DNA of 64,000 bases from Torpedo marmorata. Its lineage: Eukaryota. The stretch's first letter is position 1; the number at the start of each line of letters is the position of its first letter. This document shows positions 3,191 through 63,659 of this stretch, in pieces. Location of the stretch: the NCBI GenBank assembly GCA_977017645.1, contig OZ360232.1:35340001-35404000 (forward strand), written 5' to 3'. Both the position numbers and the translations under genes were made by a program. Below the pieces are notes generated by a model, which had not been told where the DNA came from, made no database searches, and saw only the letters and a list, made by a program, of their open reading frames with translations.

Positions 3191-3402
3191 TAACTACATA
3201 ACTAGTTGGTTTCTTCCGTACTTCTACTGAATACAGTACATTAAAAAAATATTTAGGATATCAGTCCGTGGTCCCCCTTAAATGTCTGCTCGAGAGGCTG
3301 CAGACCTAATCTGATGAGTATGTCCTCAGCAGACTGATAACCCCTGGGAATAATCCGTGAAACTGCTGGATCTTGTTGATGAAGGGTCCCGACCCTTTAG
3401 AG

Positions 3403-3762
3403 CAGTGGTTTTCAAACTGCCCCCCTAAACTCACATTCCACCTTAAGCAATCCCTATGCCATAAGTGCTCTGTGATTGGTAAGGGATTACTTAAGGTGTT
3501 ATGTGAGTGGGAAGGGAAGGTTGAGAACCACTGCTCTAGACCCAATTGCTACTGAAATATTTTGCTTGAGAAAAATTGTCATTGGCCCATTTCCTTTGGA
3601 GTTATGAAACCGTGCACATAACGTGTCAATTAGGTACGATTAAAACAGTGGTTTTCAAACCTTTTTCTTTCCATTCACATACCACCTTAAGCAATCCCTT
3701 ACTAATCACAGAACACTTATGGCATAGGGATTACTTAAGGTGGAATGTGAGTTTAGGGGGCA
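3403..3762. mobile_element. hAT (Charlie-like) MITE plus an inverted second copy
   Basis: TIRs CAGTGGTTTTCAAAC / GGTTGAGAACCACTG (3403-3533) with CTTTAGAG/CTCTAGAC flanks. Inverted copy at 3647-3762; related copy at 36213-36328. Confidence 0.75.
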
Positions 3763-5404: not shown

Positions 5405-7455
5405 CATTAAAGGTGGGTAGGGAAGAGCATAAGATTAGTTTGTTTGCAGATGATGTATTAATATATATGACAAAATCTGTTACGTCACTTCAACAATTGG
5501 CTATTATATTGACAGAATATGGTGAGATATCAGGATACAAGATTAATTCAGATAAAAGTGAGATCTTGGCTTTATCGCAAGGGGATTATACTAGATGTAA
5601 AGAAGTTACAGACTTTAAGTGGACTACAGAGAGTATTAAATATTTGGGAGTTAAAGTAGATACAAATTTGGAAAATTTGTATAAATTAAATTATACACCT
5701 TTATTTACTAAAATAAAAAAAGATTTAGAGCTTTGGAAAGACTTACCGATAACGTTGATGGGAAGAGTAAATTGTATTAAAATGAATGTTTTTCCAAGAA
5801 TTCAATATCTTTTTCAATCGATTCCTTATGGTATTCCAAATAAATTTTTTAAAGATTTAAAATTTATTGTTAGGAAATTTCTATGGAAAGGAAAGTTGGC
5901 AAGAGTAAGTATAGATAAATTAACATGGAATTATGAAATGGGAGGATTACAACTTCCTAATTTTCAATATTATTATAAAGTAGCTCAGTTAAAATTTATT
6001 AATGAATTTTTTGATTTGGATAAAACTTCTGCTTGGATTAATATAGAATTGAATAATATGGGAGAAATACATAAAGAAGATATTATTTATAAATGGAACC
6101 CTAAATTATTATTACTTAAAAAGAAAAAAACACCAATTATTAAACATTTGTTGGAAATTTGGTCGCAAGTAGATAAGGAGATAGGTCAAAAAGGATTAAT
6201 TTCTTTAAATACACCAATATATCAGAATCCACTTTTACCATTTTCTATGGATAATCAATTACTTAAATTATGGTTTTTAAAGGGAGTTAAGACATTAAAA
6301 GATTGTTTTGAAGCAGGTAAATTTGTTACCTTTCAGAGGTTAAAGGAAAAATTTAATATATTAGATAATACAATGTTAGTTTATTTTCAAGTTAGAGCTT
6401 TTTTGATTGAAAGATTAGGGAATGAATTAACAGTATTAAGACAAAGTGAATTGGAGTTATTAATTACTAAAGTTAATGTTAATAAATTTATATCACAGAT
6501 GTACAAGTTGTTTCAAAGAAAAATGTCTAAGGTAGGAGAGCATAAGTCTAGATTGAAATGGGAGTCTGATTTGAATGTTAATATAGATGAAAAACACTGG
6601 AAAGATTTATGTAAACTAAGTATGACAAAAGTTATTAATGTGAGATATAGATTAGTACAATATAATTTTTTTCATCAATTGTATTTGACACCTAGAAAAT
6701 TGAAGAAATTTAACCCAGCGTTATCAGATACGTGTTTCAGATGTAAAACTGAAATAGGATCTTTTGTACATTGTACATGGTCATGTTCAAAGATTCAAGA
6801 ATTTTGGTTGAAAGTTAAGAATTTTTTAGAAAGAATTTTTAATGTTGAAATTGCAATGGATCCTATGTTATTTTTATTTGGAGACATTAAAAAATTTAGT
6901 ATTAGACATAAATTGAATATGTATCAAGTAGAATTTTTACGTATAATATTAGCAATTTCAAAAAAATGTATAGCTATTACTTGGAAATCGGATGTTGATT
7001 TAAATTTAGAACGATGGCATGCAGAGTTACGGTCATGTATACCATTGGAAAAAATTACCTATAATTTACGAAATAAATATCATTCTTTTTTAAAAATTTG
7101 GGGCCCATATACGAGGATTATGGGTTTAACATTATGAATTCTCTGGATATTAGACCTACCGGCGAAACAACCTCTAAGATATATTAGTGTTTTTTTTTTT
7201 GTTTTTTTTTAAGCTTATTGACTCCTCGTTCTATCTTTATATCTCTACTTTTTCTTTTATCTTTACTATTATTATTTTATATTTTTTAAATTAGATTAGG
7301 GGGGTATAGGGGCTAGGGAGGGGAGGGTGGGATGAGGGGGGGAGAAAATGTAATCACATGTATTTTTTAAGAATTATATGCAAATTATTTTATGTAATGT
7401 GTGATTTAAAATTTAAATAAAATATTAAAAAAAAAAAAAAAAACAAAAAAAAAAA
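5405..7455 (+). mobile_element. 5'-truncated L1-clade LINE with an open ORF2 C-terminal half, inserted in a CR1 RT remnant
   Basis: HKISLFADDV, GYKINSDKSE, IKYLGV, GGLQLPNF and the CCHC region CFRCK...HCTWSC; stop at 7137; AATAAA plus poly(A). 14-bp TSD AACAAAGTGTCACA at 5391-5404 and 7456-7469. Confidence 0.9.
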
Positions 7456-11964: not shown

Positions 11965-12642
11965 AAAGTAAAACAAGAAAGTCTGCAGACACCGTGGTTG
12001 AAGTAAAAACACAATGCTGGAGAAACTCAGCAGGTCAAACAGTGTACTTCATGTAGCAAAGATAAAGATATATATCTGACGTTTCGGGCTTGAGCTCGTC
12101 ATCGAGATATGAGCAAAATGTAGGCAGGCGCCCGAACAAAAAGGTTGGGGGGGAGGGGCAGGGGGAGGAGCACGGTCCCACAGGCAGGAGGTAATAGGTG
12201 GATAAGGGAGGGCACACCAGCAAACGAGAAGGGGGGATGGCTCGGTAAAAACATGATTTCCCGTCTGGGCTCTCTCCAACCGGATAGAATTAACATAGAC
12301 TTCTCCGGTTTCTGCTAGACCACTCCCCGTTCTCCCTCTCTTCCCTTTCACTTTGTCTTCTTTCCTCCAGCTCTCTACCCCCTTCCCCCTTCCCTCTCCA
12401 TTCACAGAGCCATCCCCCCTCCCCCTGTTTGCTGGTGTGCCCTCCCTCCCTTATCCACCTATTACCTCCTGCCTGTGGGACCGTGCTCCTCCTCCCACCA
12501 TTTTGTTCGGGCGCCTGCCAACATTTTTCCATACCTTGATGAAGGGCTCAAGCCCGATATGTTGGTTTTGTATCTTTATTTTTGCTGCATAAAGTACCCT
12601 GTTTGTTTGACCTGCTGAGTTTTTCCAGCATTGTGTTTTTAC
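11965..12642. mobile_element. Penelope-derived inverted terminal-repeat cassette with two hammerhead-like motifs
   Basis: Left arm on the minus strand and right arm on the plus strand both match the 3' terminal repeat of the Penelope at 30404-30733. Motifs at 12077-12106 (-) and 12533-12566 (+). Confidence 0.75.
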
Positions 12643-12809
12643 TTGTGAAGGGTTGGACCATTGTTGTTCCCCCACGGATGCTGCTCGACCCGCTGAGTTC
12701 CTCCAGAAGATAGTGTTTGGCTCCAGATTCCAGCATCTGCAGTCTCTCGTGTTTAACCCACTGCTTGTCCTGAGAGTGTGGTCCCTGGCCCAAGACTCAC
12801 CATTTCAAG

Positions 12810-13380: not shown

Positions 13381-13899
13381 GGTTGAAGGGGAAACATCCT
13401 GAAGTTAGAAAGACTAGCGGCCCCTCCAGGATCAGTAGTTTTTAGTTTTAGATTATAGCATTTAAATAGTTAAATAGTATGTTTTAATTTTAAAAAAACG
13501 TTTGGAATATGGTTACCTGACGTAACTACAATCTTCAGTCTTTAAAAACACTTAGAAACTCCTCTACTTACCTCCGGGAAGATCTGCGGGTCAAGCTACA
13601 CGACCACGGGCTGTTGCGGGGATTAGGCTTTAAAGCCTCGGGGTCGCGGAGAAGACAGAAGCAGTGCGCGAGGTGGAGGAAGCGCAGTAAGCGAGCAGGG
13701 GTACACGCTAGACTGAGAGCGAACCCCTGCCGCCCGGCCCTACTAACGTACGCTATCTCGTCTTACTGTGTATATGGTAATGAACGACAAATAAAGGTGA
13801 CTTGACTTGACTTGAGAATCAGGTTTATTGTCATGAACGTGTCACAACCACGGTGTCTACAGATTTTCGTGTTTTACTTTAGTGTCACAAAATTTGTTG

Positions 13900-15175: not shown

Positions 15176-15764
15176 AAGTGTTCTATCTTTTGTGTTGGCT
15201 TGGAAAATGCCTTATGTTGGGGAGTGGGTGAGGGAGTCGCAGGTTGAACTGCCAAGGATTGTCTGTTAATAGCTCATCAACCTGAAACGTGAACTCTGTT
15301 TCTCGCCCCACAGAGGCTGCCTGGCCTGCGGAGTGTTTCCAGCGTTTTCTGGTTTTATTTCAGACATCCGGCGTCTGCGGTTTTTTATTTCTGGGAGCTC
15401 AAGGTGAGAGGGCTGGTTTTGGCTTCATCCCCTTGCCTGTTCTCTTTCTGTCAGCCCTTTTGGAAGTGGAAGGATCGCCCAGGAAGGAGAGGATGCGAGG
15501 AATCAATGTTCCGGCCTCTCCCTTCCCCGCCGGTATGCCCACACCATCTGCCCTGGCCACGGCAAGGCCCTGTGAGAGGAGAAAGGTGTGAGCAGCCACA
15601 CCTTCGGCCCTGCAGTTCGGCCGGCACCCAGGAGGCCAGGAGGGTGGCACGCTGACAGGTTGGAGCAGCTCACACACGTTCACGTGACGTGGCTGTGTCT
15701 GCATCAGGGAGGTTTAGAAGGCAACGTTTTGGCCTTAACGAGCAAAGTTTAAAAACAAAACTCG

Positions 15765-16202: not shown

Positions 16203-16341
16203 NNNNNNNNNNNNNNNNNNNNNNNNNNNNNNNNNNNNNNNNNNNNNNNNNNNNNNNNNNNNNNNNNNNNNNNNNNNNNNNNNNNNNNNNNNNNNNNNNN
16301 NNNNNNNNNNNNNNNNNNNNNNNNNNNNNNNNNNNNNNNNN
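16203..16341. other. Assembly gap
   Basis: Run of N. Confidence 1.
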
Positions 16342-23256: not shown

Positions 23257-24160
23257 CAATACTGAGGGGGGTGGGTGTCTCACTGTGGGAGGGGCACTAC
23301 TGAGGGGGGGTCACTGTGGCAGGGGTGGTACTGAGGGAGCTCCCCCCTGTGGGTGGGGCAGTACTGAGGGGGGTCACACTGTGGGAGGGGCAATACTGAG
23401 GGGGGGGTCATACTGTGGGAGGGGCAGTACTGAGGGGGTCACACTGTGGGGAGGGGCAGTACTGAGGGGGGTCACACTGTGGGAGGGGCAGTACTGAGGG
23501 GGGGTCACTGGGGGAGGGGCGGTACTGAGGGGGGTCACACTGTGGGAGGGGCGGTACTGAGGGGGGTCACACTGTGGGAGGGGCGGTACTGAGGGAGCTC
23601 CCCACTGTGGGAGGGGCAGTACTGAGGGAGCTCCCCACTGTGGGAGGGGGCAGAACTGAGGGAGCTCCCCACTGTGGGAGGGGCAGTACTGAGGGAGCTC
23701 CCCACTGTGGGAGGGGCGGTACTGAGGGGGGTCACACTGTGGGAGGGGCGGTATTGAGGGAGCTCCCCACTGTGGGAGGGGCAGTTCTGAGGGAGCTCCC
23801 CACTGTGGGAGGGGGCAGTACTGAGGGAGCTCCCCACTGTGGGAGGGGGCAGTACTGAGGGAGCTCCTCTGTGGGAGGGGCAGTACTGAGGGAGCTCCCC
23901 ACTGTGGGAGGGGGCAGTACTGAGGGAGCTCCCCACTGAGGGAGGGGGCAGTACTGAGGGAGCTCCCCACTGTGGGAGGGGCGTTACTGAGGGAGCTCCC
24001 CACTGTGGGAGGGGCAGTACTGGGGAGCTCCCCACTATGGGAGGGGGCAGGTCTGAGGGAGCTCCCCACTGTGGGAGGGGCAGTACTGGGGAGCTCCCCA
24101 CTATGGGAGGGGGCAGGTCTGAGGGAGCTCCCCACTGTGGGAGGGGCAGTACTGGGGAGC
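23257..24160. repeat. G-rich minisatellite, ~33-34 bp unit (CACTGTGGGAGGGGCAGTACTGAGGGAGCTCCC and variants)
   Basis: More than 25 tandem units, with two subtypes (GGGGGGTCA and GGGAGCTCCC). Confidence 0.95.
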
Positions 24161-26672: not shown

Positions 26673-28344
26673 CTTACCATGCTCCCCAGGCACCCACCAC
26701 TCTGTCTGTAAAAACTTTCCCCCCCCCCACATCCCCTTTAAACTTCCTCCACCCTCCCCACCTTACATAGAACACTACAGCACAGTACAGGCCCTTTGGC
26801 CCACAATGTTGTGCCGACCTCTATATACCTACCAAAAATAAAATACTAAACCCTCCCTACCTCGTAACCCTCTATTTTTCTTCCATCCATGTGCCTAAGT
26901 GTCCCTTAAATGCCCCGATGATTACAGCCTCCACCTGGCAAGGCATTCCAGGCACCCACAACTCTCTGTGTAAAATAATTACCCCTGATGCCTCCCCTAA
27001 ACGTCCCTCCCTTCACTTTGTACAGATGTCCTCTGGCGTTAACCTTAAATGTGTGTCCTCTGGTATGTGAGATTTGTACCCTGACTATCTCTCATACATT
27101 TTATAAACCTTTATCAGGTCTCCCCTTGGTCTCCAACGCTGCAGAGAAAACAACCCAAGTTTGTCCAACCTCTCCCCATAACTCACACCCTCTAATCCAG
27201 ACATCCTGGTAAACCTCCTCTGTCCCCTTTCCAAAGCCTCCACGTCGTCCCTGTAATGGGGCAACCAGAATTGCACACAGTATTCCAAGTGCAGCCTGAC
27301 CATAGTTTTATATCACTGCAACGTGACCTCCTTACTTTGAATTGTCACGTGTACCGAACTACAGTGAAAAGCTTCTTTTTGCGTGCTATCCAGGTATTGC
27401 AAGTCACCAGACCAGCACCATGGTTGCATTATAAGAAATGAACATTGAACTAACATTTCAAGTCATTTTGTGAATAAAACAACAAAATTCCTAGAAATGG
27501 ACTACTGTCCGATGAAGTCACGTCATAGGCCCTTCGGCCCAACTTGACTATGCTGACCAAAATGTCCCACCCACACTAGTCCCACCTGCCTGCGTTTGGC
27601 CCATGCCCCTCTAAACCCATCCTATCCATGTATGTATTGTTTTTTCTTAAACATTGCACCAGTACCTGCTCAACCACCTCCGCCGGCAGCCCCTTCCACA
27701 CACCCACCACCCTCTGTGTAAAAAAAAGTTACCCCATTAGATTCCTGTTAAATCCCTCCCCCCTCACCTTAAACTTATGTACTCTGGATACCGATTCCCC
27801 TACTCTGGCCAAAAGACTCTCTGCGTTCACCTAATTTATTCCTCTCATGATTTTGTACACATCTATGAGATCACACCCTGCGCCACTCCTCTGCCTCCAC
27901 CTTTCCTTTATCCAAATGATGCGGAGTAGGTTTACATCGGGCAGCACAGCATCGCGGGCCGAAGGGCCTGTACTGTGCTGTGCTGTTCTATCCTTCTCCT
28001 CTCCTGGGTCCACCAATCACCACCTGGCCCCTGTCTCACCCCTTCCCCCTCTCCTCTCCACACCGGCTACCTCCCCCCACCCTCAGTCAGTTCTGCCGCA
28101 AGGTCTCAACCCGAAGCATGCACAGTTCCTCTCCCTCCTCCGCATGGATTGGTTGGGGATATATTCCTGCGTGGTCACTGGGTCAGAATCCCAGAACCCC
28201 CTTCGAAAACTCTGTGGGAGTCCTTTCCCCAGAAGGACTGGAATGGCTTGACACCTTCTCAGGGAAACCAGCGATGGGCAATAATCATAAATCAAAATTT
28301 ATTGTTGTTTTGCGGCAGCATCACAGTGCAAACATTTATAAAAA

Positions 28345-30733
28345 CGCTGCAATGCCGAACTCTTCTTCCGTCGCCTCCGCCTCCGGGCTCACTTCCATGA
28401 TCGTGACTCTCCACCCCCCACCCAAGACCCTTTCACCCGCTTCAAGCCTTCTTCCTCTTCCTGGACACCTCGTCCTGGCCAGCTGCCCGCTCTGGATCTT
28501 TTTATTTCCAAATGACGCCGAGAAATCCACCGTCTCAACTTTACCACCCTCCTCTCGGATTCCAACCACACCTCCTCAGAACGCTGTGCCCTCCACTCTC
28601 TCCGCAACAATCCCAACCTCACCGTCAAACCCGCAGACAAGGGCGGTGCGGTTGTGGTCTGGCGCACTGACCTCTACCTTGCCGAGGCCAGTTGACAGCT
28701 CTCAGACACCTCCTCCTATCGACCCCTCCCATAGGACCCCACCACTGCACATCAAGCCAGTGTCTCCAACACCATCTCCGACCTCATCACCTTCGGTCAC
28801 CTCCCCTCCACGGCCACCAACCTCATTCTCCCCCACCCCCGCACTGCCCGTTTCTACCTTCTACCCAAGATACACAAACCCAACCATCCGGGCAGACCCA
28901 TTGTTTCTGCCTGCTCCTGCCCCACCGAACTAGTTTCATCTTACCTTGACTCCATCTTTTCTCCCCTGGTCCAATCCCTCCCCACCTACATCCGCGACAC
29001 CTCACATGCCCTCCATCTCCTCAATGACTTCAGATTCCCTGAACCGGACCGCAACATCTTCACCATGGATGTCCAATCCCTTTTTTCCCCCACACAGAAG
29101 GTCTGAAAGCACTTCGCTTCTTCCTGGACCAAAGACCCGACCAGTCACCCTCTACCATCACCCTCCTCCACCTGGCAGAACTTGTCCTCACTCTCAATAA
29201 CTTCTCCTTTAACTCATCCCACTTCCTCCAAATCAAAGGAGTAGCCATGGGTACCTGCATGGGTCCCAGCTACGCCTGCCTGTTTGTGGGCTTTGTGGAG
29301 CAATCCATGCTGCAAGCCTACACAGGCAAGACCCCTCATTTCTTCCTCCATTATATCGCCGAGTACATTGGTGCTGCCTCATGCACCAACGATGAGCTTG
29401 TCAACTTTATCCACTTCGCATCCAACTTCCACCCCGATCTCAAATTCACCTGGTCCATCTCCAATAACACATTCCCCTTCCTGGATCTCTCTGTCTCCAT
29501 CTCAGGAGACAAGCTTTCCACCGACATTTACTACAAACCCTCCAACTCCCACAACTATCTGGACTACACTTCCTCACACCCTGTCCCCTGCAAGGATTCC
29601 ATCCCCTTCTCTCAATTTCTCCGTCTCCACCGCATCTGTTCCCAAGATGAGGTGTTCCAGGCCAGATCTTCTGAAATGTCTGCCTTCTTCCACAAACGTG
29701 GCTTCCCCTCCACCACCATCAACTCAGCCCTCACCCACATCTCCTCCATTTCCCGCTCATCTGCCCTGGCCCCCGCTGCCCCCAGACGCAACAAACATAG
29801 AATCCCCCTCATCCTCACCTACCACCCCACCAGCCTCCGCATCCAACACATTATCCGCAGGAATTTCCGGCACTTACTACAGGATCCCACCACCAGACAA
29901 CATTTTTCCTTCTCCTCCCCTCTCGGCCTTCCGCAGGGACCGCTCCCTCCGCGATTCCCTCGTGCACTCATCCCTCCCCACCCATTGCACCCCCGGCACC
30001 TGCCCCTGTGCCCGCAGGAGGTGCAACACCTGCGCCCACACCTACCCCCTCACTACGATCCCCCAAGCAGGTCTTTCAAATGAAACTACACTTCACTTGT
30101 ACATCCAGAGAACTTATTTACTGCATCCAGTGCTCCCTTTCTGGCTTTCTATACATTGGAGAGACCGGTCGTAGATTGGGAGACTGCTTTGCTGAGCACC
30201 TCCTCTCCGTCCGCAACAACAGCGACCTCCCAGTAGCCAACCATTTCAATTCCGAGTCACACTCCCACACTCACATGTCTGTCCATGGCCTTATGTACTA
30301 TCCCACCCAGACTACCCGCAAATTGGAAGAACAACATCTAATTTTTCGTCTGGGCACTCTCCAGCCAGATGGCATTAACATTGACTTTTCTGCTTTCCAC
30401 TAAACCTGCTTGTTGTTCCCTTCCCCTCTCCCCTCACCTGTCCTTCCTGTTTTTTTCCACCAACCCAGCCATCCCTCCTCCCCCTCTTTGCTGCTGTCCC
30501 CTCTCTCCTTTCTCCACCTATCATCTCCTGCCTTTGCCATCCCCCTCCCCCCTCACTCTTTTGTTCGGACGCCTGCCGGCATTTTCTCATGCTTTGATGA
30601 AGGGCTCAAGCCCGAAACGTCGGTTATGTATTTCTACCTTTGCTACATAAAAGACACTGTTTGACCTGCTGAGTTTCTCCAGCATTTGTGTTTTTTACTT
30701 CAACCACGGTGTCTACAGATTTTCGTGATTTAC
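28345..30733 (+). mobile_element. Penelope-like retroelement (RT plus GIY-YIG endonuclease), 5'-truncated and frameshifted, with 3' terminal repeat
   Basis: Across frames: KPADKGGAVVVW, PRTARFYLLPKIHKP...GRPIVSACSCPTE, GVAMGTCMGPSYACLFVG, FPFLDL, DIYYKP, IPFSQFLRLHRICS, and the GIY-YIG IYCIQC...LYIGETGRRLGDCFAEH. The RT YxDD motif is mutated to YIAE. Confidence 0.9.
30591..30628 (+). ncRNA. Putative minimal type-I hammerhead ribozyme in the Penelope terminal repeat
   Basis: TTGATGA-A-GGGC(TCAA)GCCC-GAAA-CG-TC-GGTT: core boxes, stem II and a palindromic ACGT at helix III. Confidence 0.6.
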
Positions 30734-30761
30734 TTTGGGATAGAGGGGGTGGGGGGGGGGG

Positions 30762-31045
30762 CTAATTTAAACCAGAGAAGTTGATGTTAATGCCACCTGG
30801 TTGGAGGATGCCCAGACGGAAGATGAGGTGTTGTTCCTCCAATTTGCGGGTGGTCTCAGTCTGACAGTGCATGAGACCATGGACAGGCATGTCGGCAAGG
30901 GAATGGGATGTGGAATTGAAATGGGTGGCCTCTGGGAGATCCACTCTATTGCGGCGGACAGAGACAAGGTGTTCAACAAAGCGATCTCCCAGTCTGGATC
31001 CAGTCTCTCCGATGTAGTGGAGACCACAACGGGAGCACCAGAGGG
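30762..31045 (-). mobile_element. Penelope GIY-YIG fragment, inverted relative to the 28345 copy
   Basis: WCSRCGLHYIGETGSRLGDRFVEHL...RKLEEQHLIFRLGILQPGGIN. Confidence 0.8.
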
Positions 31046-31217
31046 AGTGGGGTGGGGGGAGTAAGTACAGGGGTAGGTCTGATCTCTGCTGACCACAACT
31101 CTTCTGTGCCAGTTCCCCAGAACATATCTGCAGACCCATCAGCCTCTGTCCAAAGCCAGGAATCCTGTTTCAGTATCAGTCCCCGTCACACGAACGGGTG
31201 CCTGCCTACATTTTGCT

Positions 31218-31258
31218 CATGCCTTGATGAAGGGCTCAAGCCCGAAACGTCGGTTATG
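31218..31258 (+). ncRNA. Putative minimal hammerhead ribozyme
   Basis: CATGCC-TTGATGA-AGGGCTCAAGCCC-GAAA-CGTC-GGTTATG. The flanks can pair as stem I; predicted cut after C31251. Confidence 0.62.
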
Positions 31259-31714
31259 TATCTTTATCTTTGCTGCATAAAGGACACTGTTTGACCTGCT
31301 CAGTTTCTCCAGCTTTGTGTTTTTACTAAGTACAACTAAGTTTTATTTCCACTGGTGATGCATGACCCTCTGTTAATTTATACATACAGCACAACAACAG
31401 GCCCTTCTGGCTCACAAACCCGTTCCGTCCACGTGACCAATTAACCCACTAACCCTGTACGTCTTTGGAACGTGGGAGGACACCGGAGCAGTCAGAGATG
31501 TTGGGGAACCTGCAGTGGGTGGTGTTCCCATGTGCCTGCTGCCCTTGTCTCTCTTGTTACTCGAAATCCAAGCCTGGAAAGTCCTGTCAGAGTAGCCTGG
31601 GTGGGTAACTGCGGTGCATTCTGTCGACTGGTTCCACCATGTGCCAGCGGTGGAGGGAGGGAGTGTTTAGCGTGGTGAGTGGGATACCACTGAAGCAATC
31701 TGACTTGTCACGGT

Positions 31715-32724: not shown

Positions 32725-33425
32725 TTTTTAAAAAATATTAAATTTAGACATACAGCACGGTAAAAGGCCATTTCGGCCCACGAGTCCGTGCCGCTCAATT
32801 TACACCCAATTGACCTACAACCCCCGTACGTTTTGAAGGGTGGGAGGAAACCAGAGCGCCCGGAGGAAACCCATACAGACACGGGGAGAACGTACAAACT
32901 CATTACAGATAGCACGGGATTTGAACCCCGGTCCCGATCTCTGGCGCGGTAAAGGCGTTGCGCTAACCACTATGCTAACCGTGCCGCCCCAAAAACAAAG
33001 AGTTCCACAAGTTCACAACTGTCTGAGTGAAGTGGTTAGCGCAATGCTGTTGCAGCGCCAGCGACCGGGATTCGAATCTGTCTGTAAGGAGTTTGTACGT
33101 TCTCCCCGTGTCTGCGTGGGTTTCCACCAGGTGCTCCGGTTTCCTCCCACCCTTCAAAACGTACCGAGATTGGACACGTAGAAACATAGAAAACCTACAG
33201 CATAATACAGGCCATTCGGCCCACAAAGTTGTGCCGAACATGTCCCTACCTTAGAAATTACTAGGCTTACCCATAAGCCCTCTATTTTTCTAAGCTCCAT
33301 GCACCTATCCAAAAGTCTCTTAAAAGACCCTATCGGTTGTAGGTTAATTGGGAGTAATTGGGCGGCACGGGCTCGTGGGCTGAAAGGGCCTGTTACCGTG
33401 CTGTATTTCTAAATTTAAATTTAAA
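32725..33425. mobile_element. Two divergently oriented V-SINEs: 32725-32990 (-) and 33030-33425 (+), the latter interrupted by a CR1 tail at ~33180-33335
   Basis: V-SINE cores on opposite strands. Confidence 0.8.
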
Positions 33426-35819: not shown

Positions 35820-36030
35820 ACTGCAGATAATAGAAATCTGGAATTAAAACAAAATACTGAAAACACTCAGCAGGTTAGTCAGCATCTGTGGAGGGAGAGA
35901 AATGGAGTTAATATTACGTTGAATATCCTCTGTCAGAACAGGTCAGCAGTTGTGATGAAAGGTCCCAGACCTGAAACGTCGACAGTCTCTCGTTCCATAG
36001 ACCCTGCCTGACCTGCTGAGTGCTTCCATA
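35820..36030. mobile_element. Older Penelope-derived inverted cassette with a hammerhead-like motif at 35951-35983
   Basis: CACTCAGCAGG...GCATCTGTGG is inverted with CCTGACCTGCTGAGTG; core GTGATGA-AAGGTC(CCA)GACCT-GAAACGTC. Confidence 0.6.
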
Positions 36031-36212
36031 TTCTGATGTTACAAAAGCTTCTGCACATGAAGATCAAAGTTCAAGGTTCCTTTTATTGTCACATAAGAAT
36101 ACATTAAAAAAGTATCATACATGATATTGTCTGCCCGTTTATTTCTTCTACCAAAGTGCATGACCGTACACTTTGTATTTCATTTGCCACTTCTCCGCCC
36201 ATTCTCCTAATC

Positions 36213-36328: not shown

Positions 36329-36542
36329 ATCAAAATCACTGATATACAACATAAAAATTAAAAGTTAAACCAGGCCCGGTCTCACGCAGTAAATAGAAGG
36401 TCCCTTGAGAGTGTTGTAGACCTCAGGGTACAGGTACCTAGTTGCCTGAGTGTTAGTGACCCAGGTGCTCAGGGTGGTGGTGAAGGTGTTTGACATGCTT
36501 GCCTTCATCGATCAGGGCACTGAGTACAGAAGCTGGGACGTA

Positions 36543-37148
36543 AAAAGTAAAACACAAGAGTCTGCAGACACCGTGATTGAAGTAAAAACACAATGCTGGA
36601 GAAACTCAGCAGGTCAAACAGCGCACTTTATGAGCCCATATATGAAAGCTGTTGGTTTAAGGATTTGAACATCTCTGGATATCGGATCTACTGGCACGCT
36701 TGACCTCCATAATAGAATTAGTTTATAGATGGCATTCCCCTTACTTTATCTTTTTCTTTCTTTCTTTTTTCTTTTTTACTTTTTATTATATTTTTATTAG
36801 ATTAGTGGGGGTGGGGGGGGTTGGGGAGGGGAGGGAGGGAGGGGGGGTGAAAATGTATCACAAATAATTTGATAATTTTATATTCTATTTTATGTATTTT
36901 GTGATTAAAAATTTTTAATAAAATATTTTTTTTTAAAAACAAAAAAAAACAAACAGCGCACTTTATATAGCAAAGATAAAGATACATAACCAACGTTTTG
37001 GGCTTGAGCACTTCATCAAGGTACATCAAGGTATTTTTCCATACCTTGATGAAGGGCTCAAGCCCAAAACGTTGGTTATGTATCTTTATCTTTGCTATAT
37101 AAAGTGCGCTGTTTGACCTGCTGAGTTTCTCCAGCATTGTGTTTTTAC
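36543..37148. mobile_element. Penelope-derived palindromic cassette, interrupted by an L1 3' fragment
   Basis: Near-perfect inverted arms around the junction CATCAAGGTACATCAAGG (37014-37031). Confidence 0.8.
36632..36949 (+). mobile_element. L1 3'-end fragment with poly(A)
   Basis: Resembles the 3' UTR of the 5405 L1. 17-bp TSD CAAACAGCGCACTTTAT at 36615-36631 and 36950-36966. Confidence 0.85.
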
Positions 37149-38477
37149 AGGACCAGGGACGTCATGTTGCAACTGCACAAGACATTGGTGAGATCATATT
37201 ATGTGCAGTTCTGGTCACCCAGCTATAGGACAGATGTCATTAAGCTGAAGAGGGTGCAGAGGAGAGTGATGAGGATTGTAGAGCTCCGGTTACAGAGAAA
37301 CTGGATAGGCTGGGACTTCTTCCCCTGGAGCCCAGGACACTGAGGTCTGACCTTACAGAGAGGCATAGATAAGTGAATGCTCACAGTCCTATCCCCAGAG
37401 CAGGGGAGTCTAAAACCAGAGGTTAGAGGGGAAAGATTTCAAAGTGACCTTCTTCACACAGAGGGTGGTGGGTGTGTGGAACGAGCTGCCAGAGGAAGTA
37501 GTAGAGGTGGGGACAATTACAGCATTTAAAAGGCCTTCAGACAGGTACATAGATAGGAAAGTTTTAGTGGGATATGGGCCAAACAGAGGCAAATGGGACT
37601 GGCTCTAGTAGACACTTGGTCGGCATGGATGAGTTGGCTGAAGAGGCTGTTTCTCTAACTCAATGTCTCCATGGATAGGCATATGGTTAGAGAGGTGAGA
37701 GGATAAACATACTGACAGAGGTAAAGTGCGTTGGTGTCCTCGGTAACCTCAGCACAACCCAAAACCTGTGCACCACTTGAGGACTTTACGAAGAGTGATC
37801 GAACAGTCCAGAACAGGAACAGGCCCTTCGGCCCACGTTACTGTACTGAACGCGATGCCCAGTTTCAACTAAAACTCTGCTACTTGCACGTGATGCGTAT
37901 TCCTCTTCTCGCTGCATACCCACGCAATTACCCATACAGTTCTCTGCTGTAAGGCTGGAGGAATTAGCCGCCATTTTGTGCACTGCAACCTCCCATAAAC
38001 TGCAATAACAATGTCCAGATACACGAAGATAAATGTTGGCCACTTCTTCGAATTAATAGCATGGGATATTCCTCATTCACCGACTAATACGACAGTGCAG
38101 GACTCCCACAGGTTTGAAAAATCGAGTGCCCAGGAATGCAGAAGGTTGCAGAACATAACAAACACAACCAGGCCTATCACAGGCTCCGACCTCTCATCCA
38201 TTGAAGACATCTATGTGAAGCACTGCCTCAAGAAGGCAACCAACATCACCCTGGTCACAACCTCTTCTCACCGCTCCCTTCGGGCAGAAGGTACAGAAGC
38301 CTGAAGACCAGCACCTCTAGGTTCAAGAACAGTTTTAATCCAACAACTATCAGGCTTTTGAACCTCCCTGTACTACCCTAACCCTGACCATAAATGACTC
38401 CGGAGCCTCCAAAATATGTATCTGCACTATTGAAACATCACTTTTTCTTGCACTAACTGGAATTAGGAATATTTATT

Positions 38478-52439: not shown

Positions 52440-52572
52440 NNNNNNNNNNNNNNNNNNNNNNNNNNNNNNNNNNNNNNNNNNNNNNNNNNNNNNNNNNNNN
52501 NNNNNNNNNNNNNNNNNNNNNNNNNNNNNNNNNNNNNNNNNNNNNNNNNNNNNNNNNNNNNNNNNNNNNNNN
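52440..52572. other. Assembly gap
   Basis: Run of N. Confidence 1.
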
Positions 52573-54759: not shown

Positions 54760-55850
54760 GCATGAGGCCAAACAGAGGTCACCTGCAAATTGGAGGAACA
54801 CTACCTAATATCTTCCGAAATGTCTGCCTTCTTCCACAAACGTGGCTTCCCCTCCACCACCATCAACTCAGCCCTCACCCACATCTCCTCCATTTTCCGC
54901 TCATCTGCCCTGGCCCCCTCTGCCCCCAGACGCAACAAACATAGAATCCCCCTCATCCTCACCTACCACCCCACCAGCCTCCGCATCCAACACATTATCC
55001 GCCAGAATTTCCGGCACTTACTATAGGATCCCACCACCAGACACATTTTTCCTTCTCCTCCCCTCTCGGCCTTCCGCAGGGACCGCTCCCTCCGCGATTC
55101 ACTCGTGCACTCATCCCTCCCCACCTATCCCCCCCAGCACCTTCCCCTGTGGCCGCAGGTGCAACACTTGCGCGCACACCTCCTCCCTCACCACGGTCCG
55201 TGGCCCCAAACAGGCCTTTCAAGTGAAGCAACACAGGACTCATTTACTGCATCCGGTGCTCCCTTTGTGGCGTTCTCTACATCGGAGAGACCGGTCGCAG
55301 ATTGGGAAATCGCTTCGCTGAGCACCTCCTCTCCGTCCGCAACAACAGCGACCTCCCAGTAGCCAACCATTTCAATTCTGAGTCACACTCCCAGACTCAC
55401 ATGTCTGTCCATGGCCTTTTGCACTATCCTACCCTGACCACCCGCAGATTGGAGGAACAACACCTTATCTTCCGTCTGGGCACTCTCCAGCCAGATGGCA
55501 TTAACATTGATTTCTCTGCCTTCTGCTAAACTTGCTCGCCTTTTCTTTCCCCTCCCCCTTTCCTGTCTTTCCAGTTCTCCCCTCCCTTCCGCTTACCCAC
55601 CCAGCCATCCCTCCTCCCCCTCATTGTTGCTGTCCCCTCCCTCCCCTCATCCACCTATCATCTCCTGCCTTTGTCACCCCCCTCCCCCACTACCCTTTTG
55701 TTTGGATGCCTGCCAGCATTCTCTCATACCTTGATGAAGGACTCAAGCCCGAAACGTTGGTTATGTATTTCAACCTTTGTTACATAAAGGACACTGTTTG
55801 ACCTGCTGAGCTTCTCCAGCATTTTGTGTTTTTTACTTTTCTCTACTACC
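54760..55850 (+). mobile_element. Penelope 3' part (RT thumb, GIY-YIG and terminal repeat)
   Basis: Nearly identical to 29668-30700; hammerhead-like motif at 55728-55762. Confidence 0.85.
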
Positions 55851-56593
55851 TAATATCTGTCTGGGCACTCTCCAACCAGACAGCATTACATCGACTTCAC
55901 CAGTTTCCATTAAACCCTCCCCAGAGTCTCTCTTTCCCTATCCCTCTGTCTCCTTTCCTCCAGCTCCCCACCCCCTTTGCTCTCTATTTAGAGAGCTACC
56001 CCCTCCCCCTTTCACTTCTCAGATTTTTGTTTCTCTTCTGCCCTCCCACTCATATCTCCCTCTTGCCTTTAGGCCTGTGCACCTCCCCTCGCCCCTTCTT
56101 CCCTCCTCCCCGCACCTTTTTATTCAGGCACCTGCCTGCTTTTTTGCTCATACTTTGACGAAGGGCCCACGCCCAAAACGTTGGTTATATCCCTTTGTTT
56201 CCTGTGGATGCTGCGTGACCTTCTGAATTTCTCCAGCGCGTTTGTGCATTGCACTACAGTCACAGTGTCTGCAGACTTTCCTGTTTAACTGCCCCGCGTT
56301 ACACAGGGTTCCTCAACAGGATTCCATGGAGAATCCACTGAGTACGTGGATACCTGGTCACTCCATGTATCCCAGCTTTTACCACAGGGCCACACTGATC
56401 TGGGGGCAGGAGCTGGCTGAACAGAACCAGCACAATTCAGCTCCAGTAACGATCAAACCGCTGGAGGATGTGTCTACATGAAACCACTCCAACTCCAGAC
56501 TTTGAAGGAGTTTCCCTCCTATTCATCCTGCAGTTTGTTTTTTGCTCTATTCCAGCCTCTGGTGTCCCCAGTTGACCTCCAAGAGAATTTTAA

Positions 56594-60050: not shown

Positions 60051-60253
60051 ATCAAGTCAGGTCAAGTTTATTGTCATCCGATTGCACAAGTACAACCCGA
60101 CGAAACAGCGTTCTCCGGTCCTTGGTGCAAAATACGCAGACACACAACCAGACATAACACATACAGACAAAAAATACATATGCAGGACAAGTATTCATAT
60201 ATACAAATAAATAAATAGATTCTGTTTTGTACAAATGAGACCATATGTAAAGG

Positions 60254-60524
60254 AAAGTAAAACACAAAAGTCTGTAGACACCGTGGTTGAAGTAAAAACA
60301 CTATGCTGGAGAAATTCAGCAGGTCAAACAGTGTACTTTATATAGCAAAAATAAAGATACATAACCAACGTTTCGGGCTTGAGCCCTTCATCAAGGTACA
60401 TCAAGGTTTTTTTTCCATACTCTGATGAAGGGCTCAAGCCTGAAACGTTGGTTATGTAAATTTATCTTTGTTATATAAAGGACACTGTTTGACCTGCTGA
60501 GTTTCTCCAGCATTGTGTTTTTAC
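60254..60524. mobile_element. Penelope-derived palindromic cassette with back-to-back hammerhead motifs
   Basis: Inverted arms with junction CATCAAGGTACATCAAGG (60389-60406). Motifs at 60364-60398 (-) and 60419-60452 (+, canonical CTGATGA). Confidence 0.8.
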
Positions 60525-60633
60525 TGAGACATATGTATGTGGGCCAAAGGGCCTGTATTGTGCTGGAATGTACCATCCACCCTCCGTGTGTTTGACCCAG
60601 CTATTGAAAGTGTCCTCCTCCTTCCCCCTGCAG

Positions 60634-61994
60634 GAACCTGCCGCAGTTGGAGTGTGAGCGAGCAGGAGGCCAAGGGGGCCAGGACCCAGAGCCAGAGGAT
60701 CGCGGCCCAGTTGACCACGCCGCCCAGCCCCAACTCCAAGGGCGTCCTGCTCTTCAACCGGCGCAAGAAGAGAGTCAACGAATTCACGCAGAGGGGGCCG
60801 GGGTCCGCCCGGCCGGCGGATGGAGAAGGCGGGGAGCCCGGGGGACGTGTAGGCCAGGAGCCCAGCGAGGAGCCCGGCCTACCCTACTTCGAGCAGCAAG
60901 CTGGCATGGAGGAGGAGGAGGCCCGGCTGGAAGGTGGGGTGGAGGCCAAGGCAGGAGGCGAAGACCAGCAGGCCGCAGCACGGCTTGACCCCAACGAGGA
61001 CTACTTGGAGCTGCCAGTGGAGACCCGGCGAAGAGAGGCTGAGGCTGAGGCCTTCAGGCCTGGCGGCTTGCCACCGCCGCCGCCCGTGGCCCGGCCGGGC
61101 AAGACGGGCCTACTGGAGCAGCCGAGGCTGCGGGCGGCGGGCAGGAGGCCAATGTTCACCTTCCACGAGAGGCCGAGGCTGGCTCCCAACCCCGAGCTGC
61201 TGTCGCTGGTCCGCGGCACCGACGTACAGCGCAAGGGGGGAGGCAGCGCCGATGACGGCCTGGGCCTGGGCGCCGAAGCCTGCACGCTAGGCCCACACCC
61301 GGCCCCGGATCCGTCCGCCGTGGTCTGTGCCGGCGAGGAGAAGCCGGCACCCGTGTGGGCCTCGTGCTTGAAGCCGCCTGAGCTGCGGCCTACGCGTAGG
61401 TCCGGAGCCTCGCAATGCCTGGCCGAGGTCCGGGGCAAAGGGGCCGAGCTGTTCGCTCGGCGTCAGACGCGCATGGAGCGCTTCACCATCGAGGCGCCGC
61501 CGGCCTCCGAGCGCCAGCCGCGGCCTACCTCCCCCACCGCCTCGCTGCCGCCCAGCTGGAGGTGTGGTGGTGGCCCGGGTCCGAGCTCCAGGCCTTCAGG
61601 CCTAGTCGGGGGGAGCTCCAGGCCTTCCGGCCTAGCCGGGGGGAGCTCCTTCGCCTTCCGCGGCAGGGCCGCGGCTCTGCCAGGCCTGCGCCGGCTCGGT
61701 TCAGCCTCCCCACCGCCGGTCTGCGGGGCGCCCGGCCCCAGGCCTGAACTCACCAGGGCCTCACCCCTGCCTCCTCCTCCTCCCGCCGCCAAGCCTCCAG
61801 GCCCCAGGCTCAACAGTCCGGACACACGGCCCATGCCGACCACTCAGGGCCCACCGCAGGCAGCCCACAGGCCCACTGAGGCGCCGCAGGCCCCCAGGCC
61901 CACCAAGACGCCGCAGGCCCCCAGGCCCACCTTCTCGGCGCGAAGAGCCGGACTCGAGGCCCAGGTGTGGAGGCCGCGCAGGCTCTTCTTGTGA
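60634..61994 (+). CDS. SYNPO: Synaptopodin, large terminal coding exon (~453 codons)
   Basis: Motifs match vertebrate SYNPO in order: SQRIAAQLTTPPSPNSKGVLLFNRRKKRVNEFT, RPMFTFHERPRLAPNPELLSLV, LGLGAEA, WASCLKPP, LAEVRGKGAELFARRQTRMERFTIE, SPTASLPPSW, and C-terminal APRPTFSARRAGLEAQVWRP. Acceptor tcctccttccccctgcag|GA at 60633/60634 (phase 1); stop TGA at 61992-61994. Confidence 0.93.
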
Positions 61995-62497
61995 ATGGGG
62001 GCAGGGTGTGCGACATAATCTGCGCGCGGCACCGTGGGCGCGTGCCCAGCACCGGAGTCCGCCCCGTTCCCGAGTGTGAGCCCGTTCCTGCGCGACCCAC
62101 TGGCATCGTAACCCCCCCCGCCCGCTTCTCCTCCCGACACGCGTGCACGACCTCAAATACCCTCCCATGCCCGCGCACATCGCCTGAAGCACACCTCGCC
62201 TCCGCGCACACCCCGTTCGTTCACCTTCTCCCGCTAGCGCCCACCCTCCCTCTCCCTGTAAGCGCGCGCTCAATGCAGCGCACCGCCTCTCTCCTGCGCA
62301 CGCCCCTCCTGATCATCCCCGTGCCCAGTAGCCGCCCCCGCGTTCTCGTCTCCCTGACGCAGGCGCAGGCTGGTGCATGCCGGTACTCGCGCTTCCTCTG
62401 CCACGCGCGCACCCCTCCTCACACGCGCCTGGGGCAGGGGTGGTGAGGCTGGGGACGGCTCTGCTGGAGATGGTGCACGGGAACAATCCTGAACACG

Positions 62498-63278
62498 TAA
62501 AAACACAATGCTGGAGAAACTCAGCAGGTCAAACAGTGTACTTTATATACTGTAGCAAAGATAAAGATACATAACCGACATTTCGGGCTTGACCCCTTCA
62601 TCAAGGCACCGACTCAATCCCAAAACATTGGTTTTGTATCTTTGGAACATAGAACACAGTACAGGCTCTTCAACCCTCGATGTTGTGCCGACCCATATAT
62701 TCCTTCCAAAAAAGTATAAACCCTCCCTACCCAGTAACCCTCTATTTTTATTCCATCCATGTGCCTGTCTAAGAGTCTCTTAAATGCCCCCAATGTTTCA
62801 GCCTCCACCACCATCCCTGGCAAGGTATTCCAGGCACCCACAACTCTCTGAGTAAAAAAAAAAAAAAAAAAACCCCTGATGTCTCCCCTAAACTTCCCTC
62901 CCTTCACTTTGTACACATGTCCTCTGGTGTTTGCTATTCCTGCCCTGGGAAACAGGCACTGGCTGTCCACCCTATCTATGTCTCTCATAATTTTGTAGAC
63001 ATCTATGAAGACTCCTCTCATCCTTCTTTGCTCCAAAGAGAAAAGTCCCAGCTCTGCTAACCTTGCCTCATAAGACTTATTTTCCAATCCAGGCAACATC
63101 CTGGTAAATCTCCTCTGCGCCCTCTCCATAGCTTCCACATCATTCCTATAATTAGGTGACCAAAATGGAACACAATATTCTATATCTTTGCTATATAAAG
63201 TACTCTGTTTGAACTGCTGAGTTTCTCCAGCATTGTATTTTTACTTCAACCATGATGTCTGCAGACTTTCCTGTTTTA
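62498..63278. mobile_element. Penelope-derived palindromic cassette interrupted by a CR1 3' fragment (62646-63180, minus)
   Basis: Arms at 62498-62645 and 63181-63278; CR1 ORF 62614-63138. Confidence 0.75.
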
Positions 63279-63659
63279 ACTCCAAACATGTATCAGGAAC
63301 ACAAAATGTGATGAGGTTCGGTGGCTCCTTTTAGTCAAAGTGGGCTAAATATTTCCTTCTACATCAATCCCTCAAACAGCAATAAGGGTTAATTGGAGGC
63401 GGCAGGTCAAGCCGCCAGGCTCCAAGTAGGCCTCAGTGGGGTCGACTTTGTCGTGTTGATTTGCTCCTAGTTTGTGTTGACTACAAAAAAACCTTGAAGC
63501 TCATGAATTTTTGAGTCTCCTTCCCGGCCCAAACCATTCACTGATCATTTCTTTCCACGGAAGCTGCCTAACCTGCTGAGGCCCTCCAACTTCTCAGCGT
63601 TCACTCATGATTCCTGCATCTGCTGTACTCTATATCTCATTCCCTTCCTGTCTCACTCC

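Follow-up and report, generated by a model that had tools for sequence, protein, structure and literature searches.

Within the window, i.e., the whole 64-kb stretch of DNA that was analysed, two terminal repeats of a Penelope-like element (PLE) lie head to head at positions 60254–60524 (cassette G). A sequence-only reading had described the structure as two Penelope terminal repeats back to back, with hammerhead-like cores on opposite strands, and both points were borne out. It had also placed the cassette 110 bp upstream of an exon acceptor. This position was verified, as an AG at 60632–60633 puts the exon start 110 nt past the cassette, within an open frame of 488 codons. The exon is presumably that of a synaptopodin (SYNPO)-like gene. 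The proximity carries no weight because the repeat density is high, and nothing suggests a role of the cassette in the neighbouring gene. The features of the locus are the following:

60236–60249, plus strand: left target-site duplication, 8–14 bp, matching 60525–60537 at 13 of 14 positions
60254–60290, minus strand: PLE tail of 36–37 nt, on the left arm only, with a small stem-loop fold
60291–60398, minus strand: left arm, a PLE terminal repeat in inverted orientation that starts with the first helix I base of the hammerhead and extends to the tail
60360–60398, minus strand: left hammerhead-like motif, minimal type I, with U3-G8 and a GUU site
60367/60366, minus strand: predicted cut of the left motif, between these two positions
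60399–60417, plus strand: junction, a 10-nt repeat of the last 10 nt of the left arm plus the native T-rich leader
60416–60456, plus strand: right hammerhead-like motif, minimal, with C3 and G10.1-U11.1
60418–60525, plus strand: right arm, a direct, tail-less terminal repeat (last base 60524 or 60525)
60525–60537, plus strand: right target-site duplication, within a LINE-like 3′ end
60634–61994, plus strand: start of the neighbouring coding exon (the 3′ coordinate is where the open frame stops)

The two arms (60291–60398 and 60418–60525) have a length of 108 nt each, are 91% complementary and are separated by a spacer of 19 nt. The left arm is longer by 36–37 nt (60254–60290), and the right arm is tail-less. 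The proposed "palindromic ~270-bp cassette" was thus found to have highly complementary arms, but to be asymmetric, with the tail confined to one side. The cassette RNA was predicted to fold with -164.7 kcal/mol (z -22.7), and none of 200 shuffled sequences was equally stable; according to the folding prediction, a hairpin of about -160 kcal/mol would form whichever strand is transcribed. The match of 13/14 between the target-site duplications had a P value of 0.0034 in comparison with 5000 random pairs, and its ungapped core comprises 8 nt. The first 5 nt of the duplication also match the end of the adjacent repeat, and the secure part is therefore 8 nt.

Two copies of the parent family that carry coding sequence are present in the window:

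28340–30736, plus strand: long frameshifted parent copy with RT, CX4CxxC linker, GIY-YIG region and tail-bearing terminal repeat (5′ limit approximate)
54810–55838, plus strand: 3′ kilobase of the parent family, with linker and GIY-YIG motifs, tail-less

The arms of cassette G, and of the related cassette D described below, are the 3′ terminal repeat of the element at 28340–30736 and match its positions 30594–30736 at 89%. The suspected Penelope-like origin of the arms was thereby confirmed, the arms matching the 3′ repeat of an RT/GIY-YIG element. The identity of the parent ORF was taken from a comparison with candidate proteins, 126 of 1304 of which matched the frame, most of them with RVT_1 and some with GIY-YIG, and not from Pfam or PDB: no Pfam family was found in any of three window fragments of the decayed ORF, and a PDB search with the ORF gave no match. 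The best named protein match for the RT region was from Chiloscyllium punctatum (64%), which makes a cartilaginous fish the probable host. The CX4CxxC linker lies between RT and GIY-YIG in both ORF-bearing copies, and the GIY-YIG pattern with internal cysteines is full in the 55-kb copy and degenerate in the 30-kb copy. According to the accessible part of one report, a CX2-5CxxC linker and cysteines inside GIY-YIG mark Neptune/Nematis, not Penelope/Poseidon (PMC8557442). Judged by its linker and GIY-YIG cysteines, the parent is a PLE of the Neptune/Nematis type. Other PLE copies abut at 30737–31330, and at 54780–56290 a 1-kb copy of the G/D family is nested in a PLE copy of a sister family, with a 13-bp duplication.

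The junction of cassette G had been reported to recur 23 kb away. This was the case, and moreover the 37-kb copy is a full cassette at 36544–37148 (cassette D), the left arm of which was split by a later insertion of 335 bp:

36525–36541, plus strand: left target-site duplication, 17 bp, with 3 mismatches to 37146–37162
36544–37023, minus strand: left arm with tail, broken by the nested insertion
36632–36966, unstranded: 335-bp insertion nested in the left arm; its 17-bp duplication (36615–36631 and 36950–36966) is perfect
37024–37041, plus strand: junction, differing from that of G by one substitution and one indel in the T run
37042–37148, plus strand: right arm, tail-less, with 1 difference in 107 nt to the left arm

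Apart from the nested insertion, 21 mismatches and one gap over about 270 nt separate D from G, and the two have the junction and both outer ends in common. The target-site duplication of D matches at 14 of 17 positions (P=0.014, random-pair test). When the flanks of D were joined, a LINE-like coding stretch was restored. When the outer flanks of G were joined and the adjacent repeat was removed, a different LINE-like 3′ end was restored, which is present elsewhere in the window and which we take to be that of a CR1-like LINE. The alignment of the flanks thus revealed that G and D reside in different host repeats, each with its own target duplication, and that they are separate insertions. A segmental duplication comprising G and D was ruled out because the interrupted LINE-like repeats are unrelated and the flanks fail to align. 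The insertion within the D arm (36632–36949) is A-rich at one end, has a 17-bp duplication and is 76% like 7251–7447.

Variant cassettes and an older family had also been noted, and they were retrieved at the following positions:

11965–12643, unstranded: cassette A of the G/D family, with longer arms, a different junction and a 7–11-bp target duplication
35820–36040, unstranded: older PLE family, joined hammerhead to hammerhead
62497–63280, unstranded: cassette H of the G/D family, with a different junction and a LINE inserted in one arm

Together with G and D, the window therefore harbours five head-to-head cassettes. It is dense in PLE terminal repeats, because a search with the arm profile gave 22 matches at E values up to 1, 20 of them below 0.001. 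A one-sided tail of 36–37 nt is present on one arm in each of G, D, A and H. A single target duplication around the whole unit was found for three of the four cassettes tested, including A with a match of 10/11 (P=0.014, random-pair test); around H no target duplication was found (P=0.70).

Several further observations were made at these and other copies. At 13845–13880, a 36-nt PLE tail is inserted on its own, with an apparent 8-bp duplication and 97% identity to the tail at 30701–30736. A short GT/T-rich motif occurs twice at a distance of 36 nt, and both ends of the element lie on it (60254–60300 and other tails); it may mark two RT start sites. In D (37146–37148) and A (12640–12642) the 3 nt that close the tail-less end are also those with which the target duplication begins, with some ambiguity in A, hinting at priming by short microhomology. 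Older, different families of PLE terminal repeats are present at 35820–36040, 15271–15390 and 12666–12750. Outside of the PLEs, the window includes a tandem minisatellite-like array of about 900 bp (23257–24160) and two palindromic arrangements of non-PLE repeats with 72–75% self-complementarity (3397–3760 and 32818–33172). Two assembly gaps (N runs at 16203–16341 and 52440–52572) touch no cassette.

The junction was then compared between the cassettes. A 22-nt junction core was found at two sites in the window (37011 and 60386) when up to three mismatches were allowed, and 100 shuffles yielded no match. The order is the same in G and D: the inverted arm runs to the first base of helix I, its last 10 nt are repeated, and the T-rich leader of the direct arm follows. 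Together with the first 10 nt of the direct arm, the 10-nt piece makes up a 5′ palindrome, for which -22 kcal/mol (z -4.6) was predicted at the start of the right arm of D. This junction is common to two of the five head-to-head cassettes and is missing from A, H and the 35.8-kb one. Three of the ten same-family arms shown (left arms of G, D and H) have their 5′ end exactly at helix I, and one of three sister-family arms, at 7.7 kb, ends within about 2 nt of the helix I base. Because this base is also where the inverted arm of H stops, and an arm of the sister family stops so close to it, the position is regarded as a hot spot of arm ends. The junctions of A and H carry other short fillers, which are unlike that of G/D and unlike each other. 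Because the ends recur while the fillers vary, the identical filler of G and D points to a common source, and the view that the common junction is unlikely to be a coincidence was upheld, the remaining junctions in the window being different. The common junction best fits one donor.

The filler of A (12244–12260) includes 9 nt that repeat the tail-less end in reverse, which would fit a brief restart of the RT, but with E=27 this may be chance. In H a 6-nt piece of the filler is present in its own left arm, and it is short enough for chance. Hammerhead cleavage was considered as the maker of the arm ends and was ruled out, as the ends lie 5′ of the core and off the cut site. It is speculation that a capped start or a splice acceptor is located at helix I; an extra G precedes two independent arm ends at this position, and AG is absent there. 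Searches of bacterial and archaeal genomes gave no match for the junction and none for the family motif, as expected for a fish repeat.

To what extent the arms were copied whole or were remade can be judged from their differences. In the 107-nt core no state is exclusive to the two left arms or to the two right arms of G and D, which says nothing if the arms of the donor were identical. The arms of G differ at 10/108 positions. In contrast to this, the two D arms differ at a single position in 107 nt, and three changes that G lacks are present in both of them, i.e., one G>A at a CpG, which is also present in the right arm of H, and two A>G. The chance that independent decay from one master gave the D pattern was roughly estimated to be about 1e-4, and the three common private changes imply that the arms were either remade at insertion or homogenised later. 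Both D arms having been copied from one already-diverged template is favoured by economy. Homogenisation after insertion is favoured by the mismatches in the target duplication: 1/107 between the D arms compares with 3/17 in the duplication (Fisher P=0.008), and the intervals of the divergence per lineage barely overlap (0–2.6% versus 1.9–24%). A duplication older than the arms fits an old copy that was homogenised later and would undo the case for remade arms. The inherited junction is compatible with both readings of D, and neither of them excludes it. In a tree of 12 arm rows the D arms grouped together (91/76), while the other same-family arms gave no resolved order, and none of nine inner branches was starred.

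The hammerhead-like motifs were characterized with respect to their potential activity. The layout of minimal PLE hammerheads, i.e., core boxes and helices I and II, was recovered with 85.6% of cells paired, versus 23–45% when the layout was slid. Covariation in the hammerhead was not above that of shuffled alignments (270/500). No Rfam family reached its gathering score in the 64-kb window, and 11 weak matches below threshold at the cassette were mostly to generic hairpin models, with no hammerhead among them. Across 14 arms the 3-8 pair is U-G in 12, C-G in one and U-A in one, and as a family the G/D motif fails to combine a Watson-Crick 3-8 pair with an intact G12. The canonical C3 occurs in only one of the four G/D cores, the right core of G, where it is one of two adjacent substitutions; this core has lost the G10.1-C11.1 pair, which is now G10.1-U11.1. 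In both cores of D the G12 is changed to A. An effect of U3-G8 on the cleavage rate was not found in the literature searched. Minimal PLE hammerheads are described to cleave poorly, as same-strand dimers (PMC4209133, available sections), and in the sections at hand on an Anolis protein, hammerhead cleavage was dispensable for insertion in vitro (PMC11167929).

In the cassette RNA the pairing probability of helix II was predicted to be 1e-16 to 1e-18, versus at least 0.9 when an arm is folded alone. The antisense arm is transcribed first in either direction, and in the folding of the nascent RNA helix II was likewise lost. The cassette RNA is thus predicted to be a hairpin and not a working ribozyme, and the built-in ribozymes of G and D are probably inactive. 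The earlier expectation of one ribozyme and one long hairpin in either direction of transcription is retained for the hairpin, but not for the ribozyme, the helix II of which is buried. A hairpin of roughly 108 bp in intronic RNA would be a likely ADAR substrate. In the consulted part of one survey, Penelope repeats are heavily edited in a lizard and the elephant shark has many editing sites (PMC5625713), and by analogy RNA editing of the cassette hairpin is plausible. A biological effect, if any, would come from the intronic hairpin rather than from the hammerheads.

As to the origin of the cassettes, a tentative preference, with a chance put a little below even, is given to G and D being siblings, inserted from a common donor with the junction in its RNA; this donor would probably be a longer copy or the terminal-repeat transcript of such a copy. 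Each of them is a single insertion of head-to-head repeats within one target duplication, and of the two repeats one extends through the tail while the other stops 36 nt earlier. PLE insertions with an inverted pLTR, a one-sided tail, 8–10-bp duplications and palindromes, both at the junction and at the 5′ ends of pLTRs, have been described in the accessible passages of two reports, as has mobilisation in trans by pLTRs (PMC3846280, PMC8557442). The Poseidon protein of Anolis, in the portion of the study available, cleaves both strands and extends them, initiating at two internal positions that bound the tail (PMC11167929). By analogy with Poseidon, which belongs to another clade, the RT/GIY-YIG protein would cut both strands at the target, and the same RNA would be copied from two internal starts, the two ends of the tail, so that an arm with a tail and one without it would result in head-to-head orientation. 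Alternatively, one cDNA could be followed by self-priming at the 5′ palindrome, which the accessible text of PMC3846280 proposes for PLEs; the product would be alike, and both arms would be made at insertion. The common donor would already have had the 5′ palindrome or the junction, and if its RNA contained the palindrome or the whole junction, the daughters would repeat the seam. The other arm would stop at the first base of helix I as a preferred end point. The cassettes would be end products, and the hammerheads would be passengers unable to fold in the cassette RNA. A donor with the junction, the arms being remade at each insertion, explains the absence of arm-specific states at least as well as a whole-dimer template. 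Against sibling insertions it can be argued that simple annealing of a palindromic end would give no 10-nt repeat, that the G arms differ from each other, that the 64-kb window holds no longer donor bearing the junction, and that there are only two copies.

Instead, the cassette itself might have been the donor, as a non-autonomous palindromic PLE derivative, which is considered possible but doubtful. A minus-strand RNA with a 3′ tail would be copied by the RT through the junction into the antisense arm, and the junction would be inherited both if the arms were taken over in full and if they were formed anew when two cDNAs anneal. D would then belong to a second generation, or it would be an old copy that underwent homogenisation afterwards. 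This would account for the whole junction including the 10-nt repeat, for the common inner and outer ends and for unrelated flanks with duplications. The three arm and two tail changes of D (5/143) equal the age of the G arms (10/214 per lineage), as expected of a recopied aged cassette. It is also consistent with the accessible statements that pLTRs suffice for mobilisation in trans (PMC3846280) and that non-autonomous PLEs exist (PMC8557442). However, the two copies share no arm-specific state, the template RNA would be a hairpin of the stability given above, the neighbouring gene is on the plus strand, so that its RNA has no sense tail, and other junctions of the G/D family differ. Many copies would mark a non-autonomous PLE family, and two with unrelated flanks are present in the 64 kb. 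The more specific version, a self-perpetuating palindromic mini-PLE in which the seam is inherited and the tail-bearing arm serves to renew both arms by cDNA annealing, is viewed with the same doubt. The antisense arm would silence the hammerhead and keep the template uncut, D would be a second-generation copy, and its two A>G changes might be fixed ADAR edits.

A one-off local event, in which one copy templated the other or ectopic gene conversion acted across 23 kb, is unlikely. The proximity, the presence of two copies only and the arm homogenisation that D shows to be possible are in line with it, but the 21 mismatches and one gap extend along the full length including the junction loop, leaving no recent tract, and the unrelated flanks exclude a segmental duplication. 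Slightly more unlikely still is that both junctions were formed de novo, by clustering of ends at helix I and frequent short templated fillers. The end hot spot, the fillers of A and H and the older family that is also joined at hammerheads would agree with such re-formation, yet two equal ends and an equal 10-nt filler would have been required twice, and the fillers of A and H differ. A retrozyme, i.e., a ribozyme-cut circular RNA, or a MITE moved by DNA cut-and-paste had been suggested; this was largely refuted and is very improbable. A MITE has symmetric terminal inverted repeats and the fixed duplication length of a DNA-transposon family. The cassettes are indeed short and non-coding, with hammerhead motifs and terminal inverted repeats, but the opposite-strand hammerheads are predicted to be unable to fold, tandem units are missing, the ends are asymmetric by 36 nt with a PLE tail, the duplications vary within 7–17 bp (7–11, 8–14 and 17 bp), and the arms are PLE 3′ ends. 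The cassettes thus lack defining features of both classes.

Taken together, cassettes G and D are real and their architecture is mostly known; the common junction is one suggestive detail in n=2 copies. How PLEs make inverted structures is still called undefined (PMC8557442, in the part available), and minimal cassettes of this type are a compact record of insertion, with two start sites, the helix I end point and templated fillers. If the junction were inherited by many copies, an inverted, ribozyme-silent non-autonomous kind of PLE would exist beside tandem retrozymes. Otherwise, G and D would be repeat remnants of an ordinary kind that are likely to give rise to intronic dsRNA. If the mini-PLE were true and the window typical, two per 64 kb would amount to tens of thousands of copies, and these would be PLE parasites of a SINE-like class that differs from tandem retrozymes.

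Several known systems resemble the cassettes. Like Neptune/Nematis elements, the element in the window has an RT, a CX4CxxC linker and a GIY-YIG with two internal cysteines, and it was placed in this pair of clades by these motifs. Inverted repeats of Penelope were reported in Drosophila virilis (PMC2377424, as far as accessible). Adineta Pen2/Pen2a/Pen3a and D. virilis Penelope have, in the accessible text of the reports, head-to-head repeats with a one-sided 30–40-nt tail as in G and D (PMC3846280, PMC8557442, PMC2377424), as well as a variable target duplication and a short palindrome at the junction or the pLTR 5′ end. In contrast to these insertions, as far as the same texts describe them, G and D have no ORF between the repeats and consist of arms from hammerhead to tail only, and one junction, including its 10-nt repeat, is common to their two loci. 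Poseidon PAc of Anolis similarly has two element ends 36 nt apart and a minimal hammerhead in its terminal repeat, but it belongs to another clade and has a C3-G8 core, in contrast to U3-G8 in the G/D family, and inverted products are not dealt with there (PMC11167929, available portion). Minimal PLE hammerheads are, like those of G and D, of type I, without a helix III loop, with an extra base after A9 and a palindromic 15.2-16.2, and opposite-strand pairs 100–700 bp apart occur in Schistosoma; the described pairs are C3-G8 and U3-A8, whereas the G/D family has U3-G8 and cores only about 30 nt apart (PMC4209133, accessible sections). A fixed-junction or inherited palindromic PLE unit was not reported in the literature searched (Repbase, Dfam and most subscription journals lay outside).

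In the parts of the sources available, non-LTR retrozymes share with G and D the non-coding, pLTR-derived nature and a type I hammerhead, but they are same-strand tandem repeats cut into circles, whereas G and D are an inverted pair (PMC7229834; bioRxiv 10.64898/2026.07.22.740005). MITEs and the palindromic Harbinger of Xenopus are also about 200–300 bp long, self-folding and likely ADAR targets, according to the accessible text of PMC5625713. In contrast to them, G and D have a retro origin, asymmetric ends and a variable duplication length. Inverted repeats, a one-sided tail, junction palindromes and opposite-strand hammerheads have all been described for PLEs already, and in working and class G and D are an ordinary PLE insertion.
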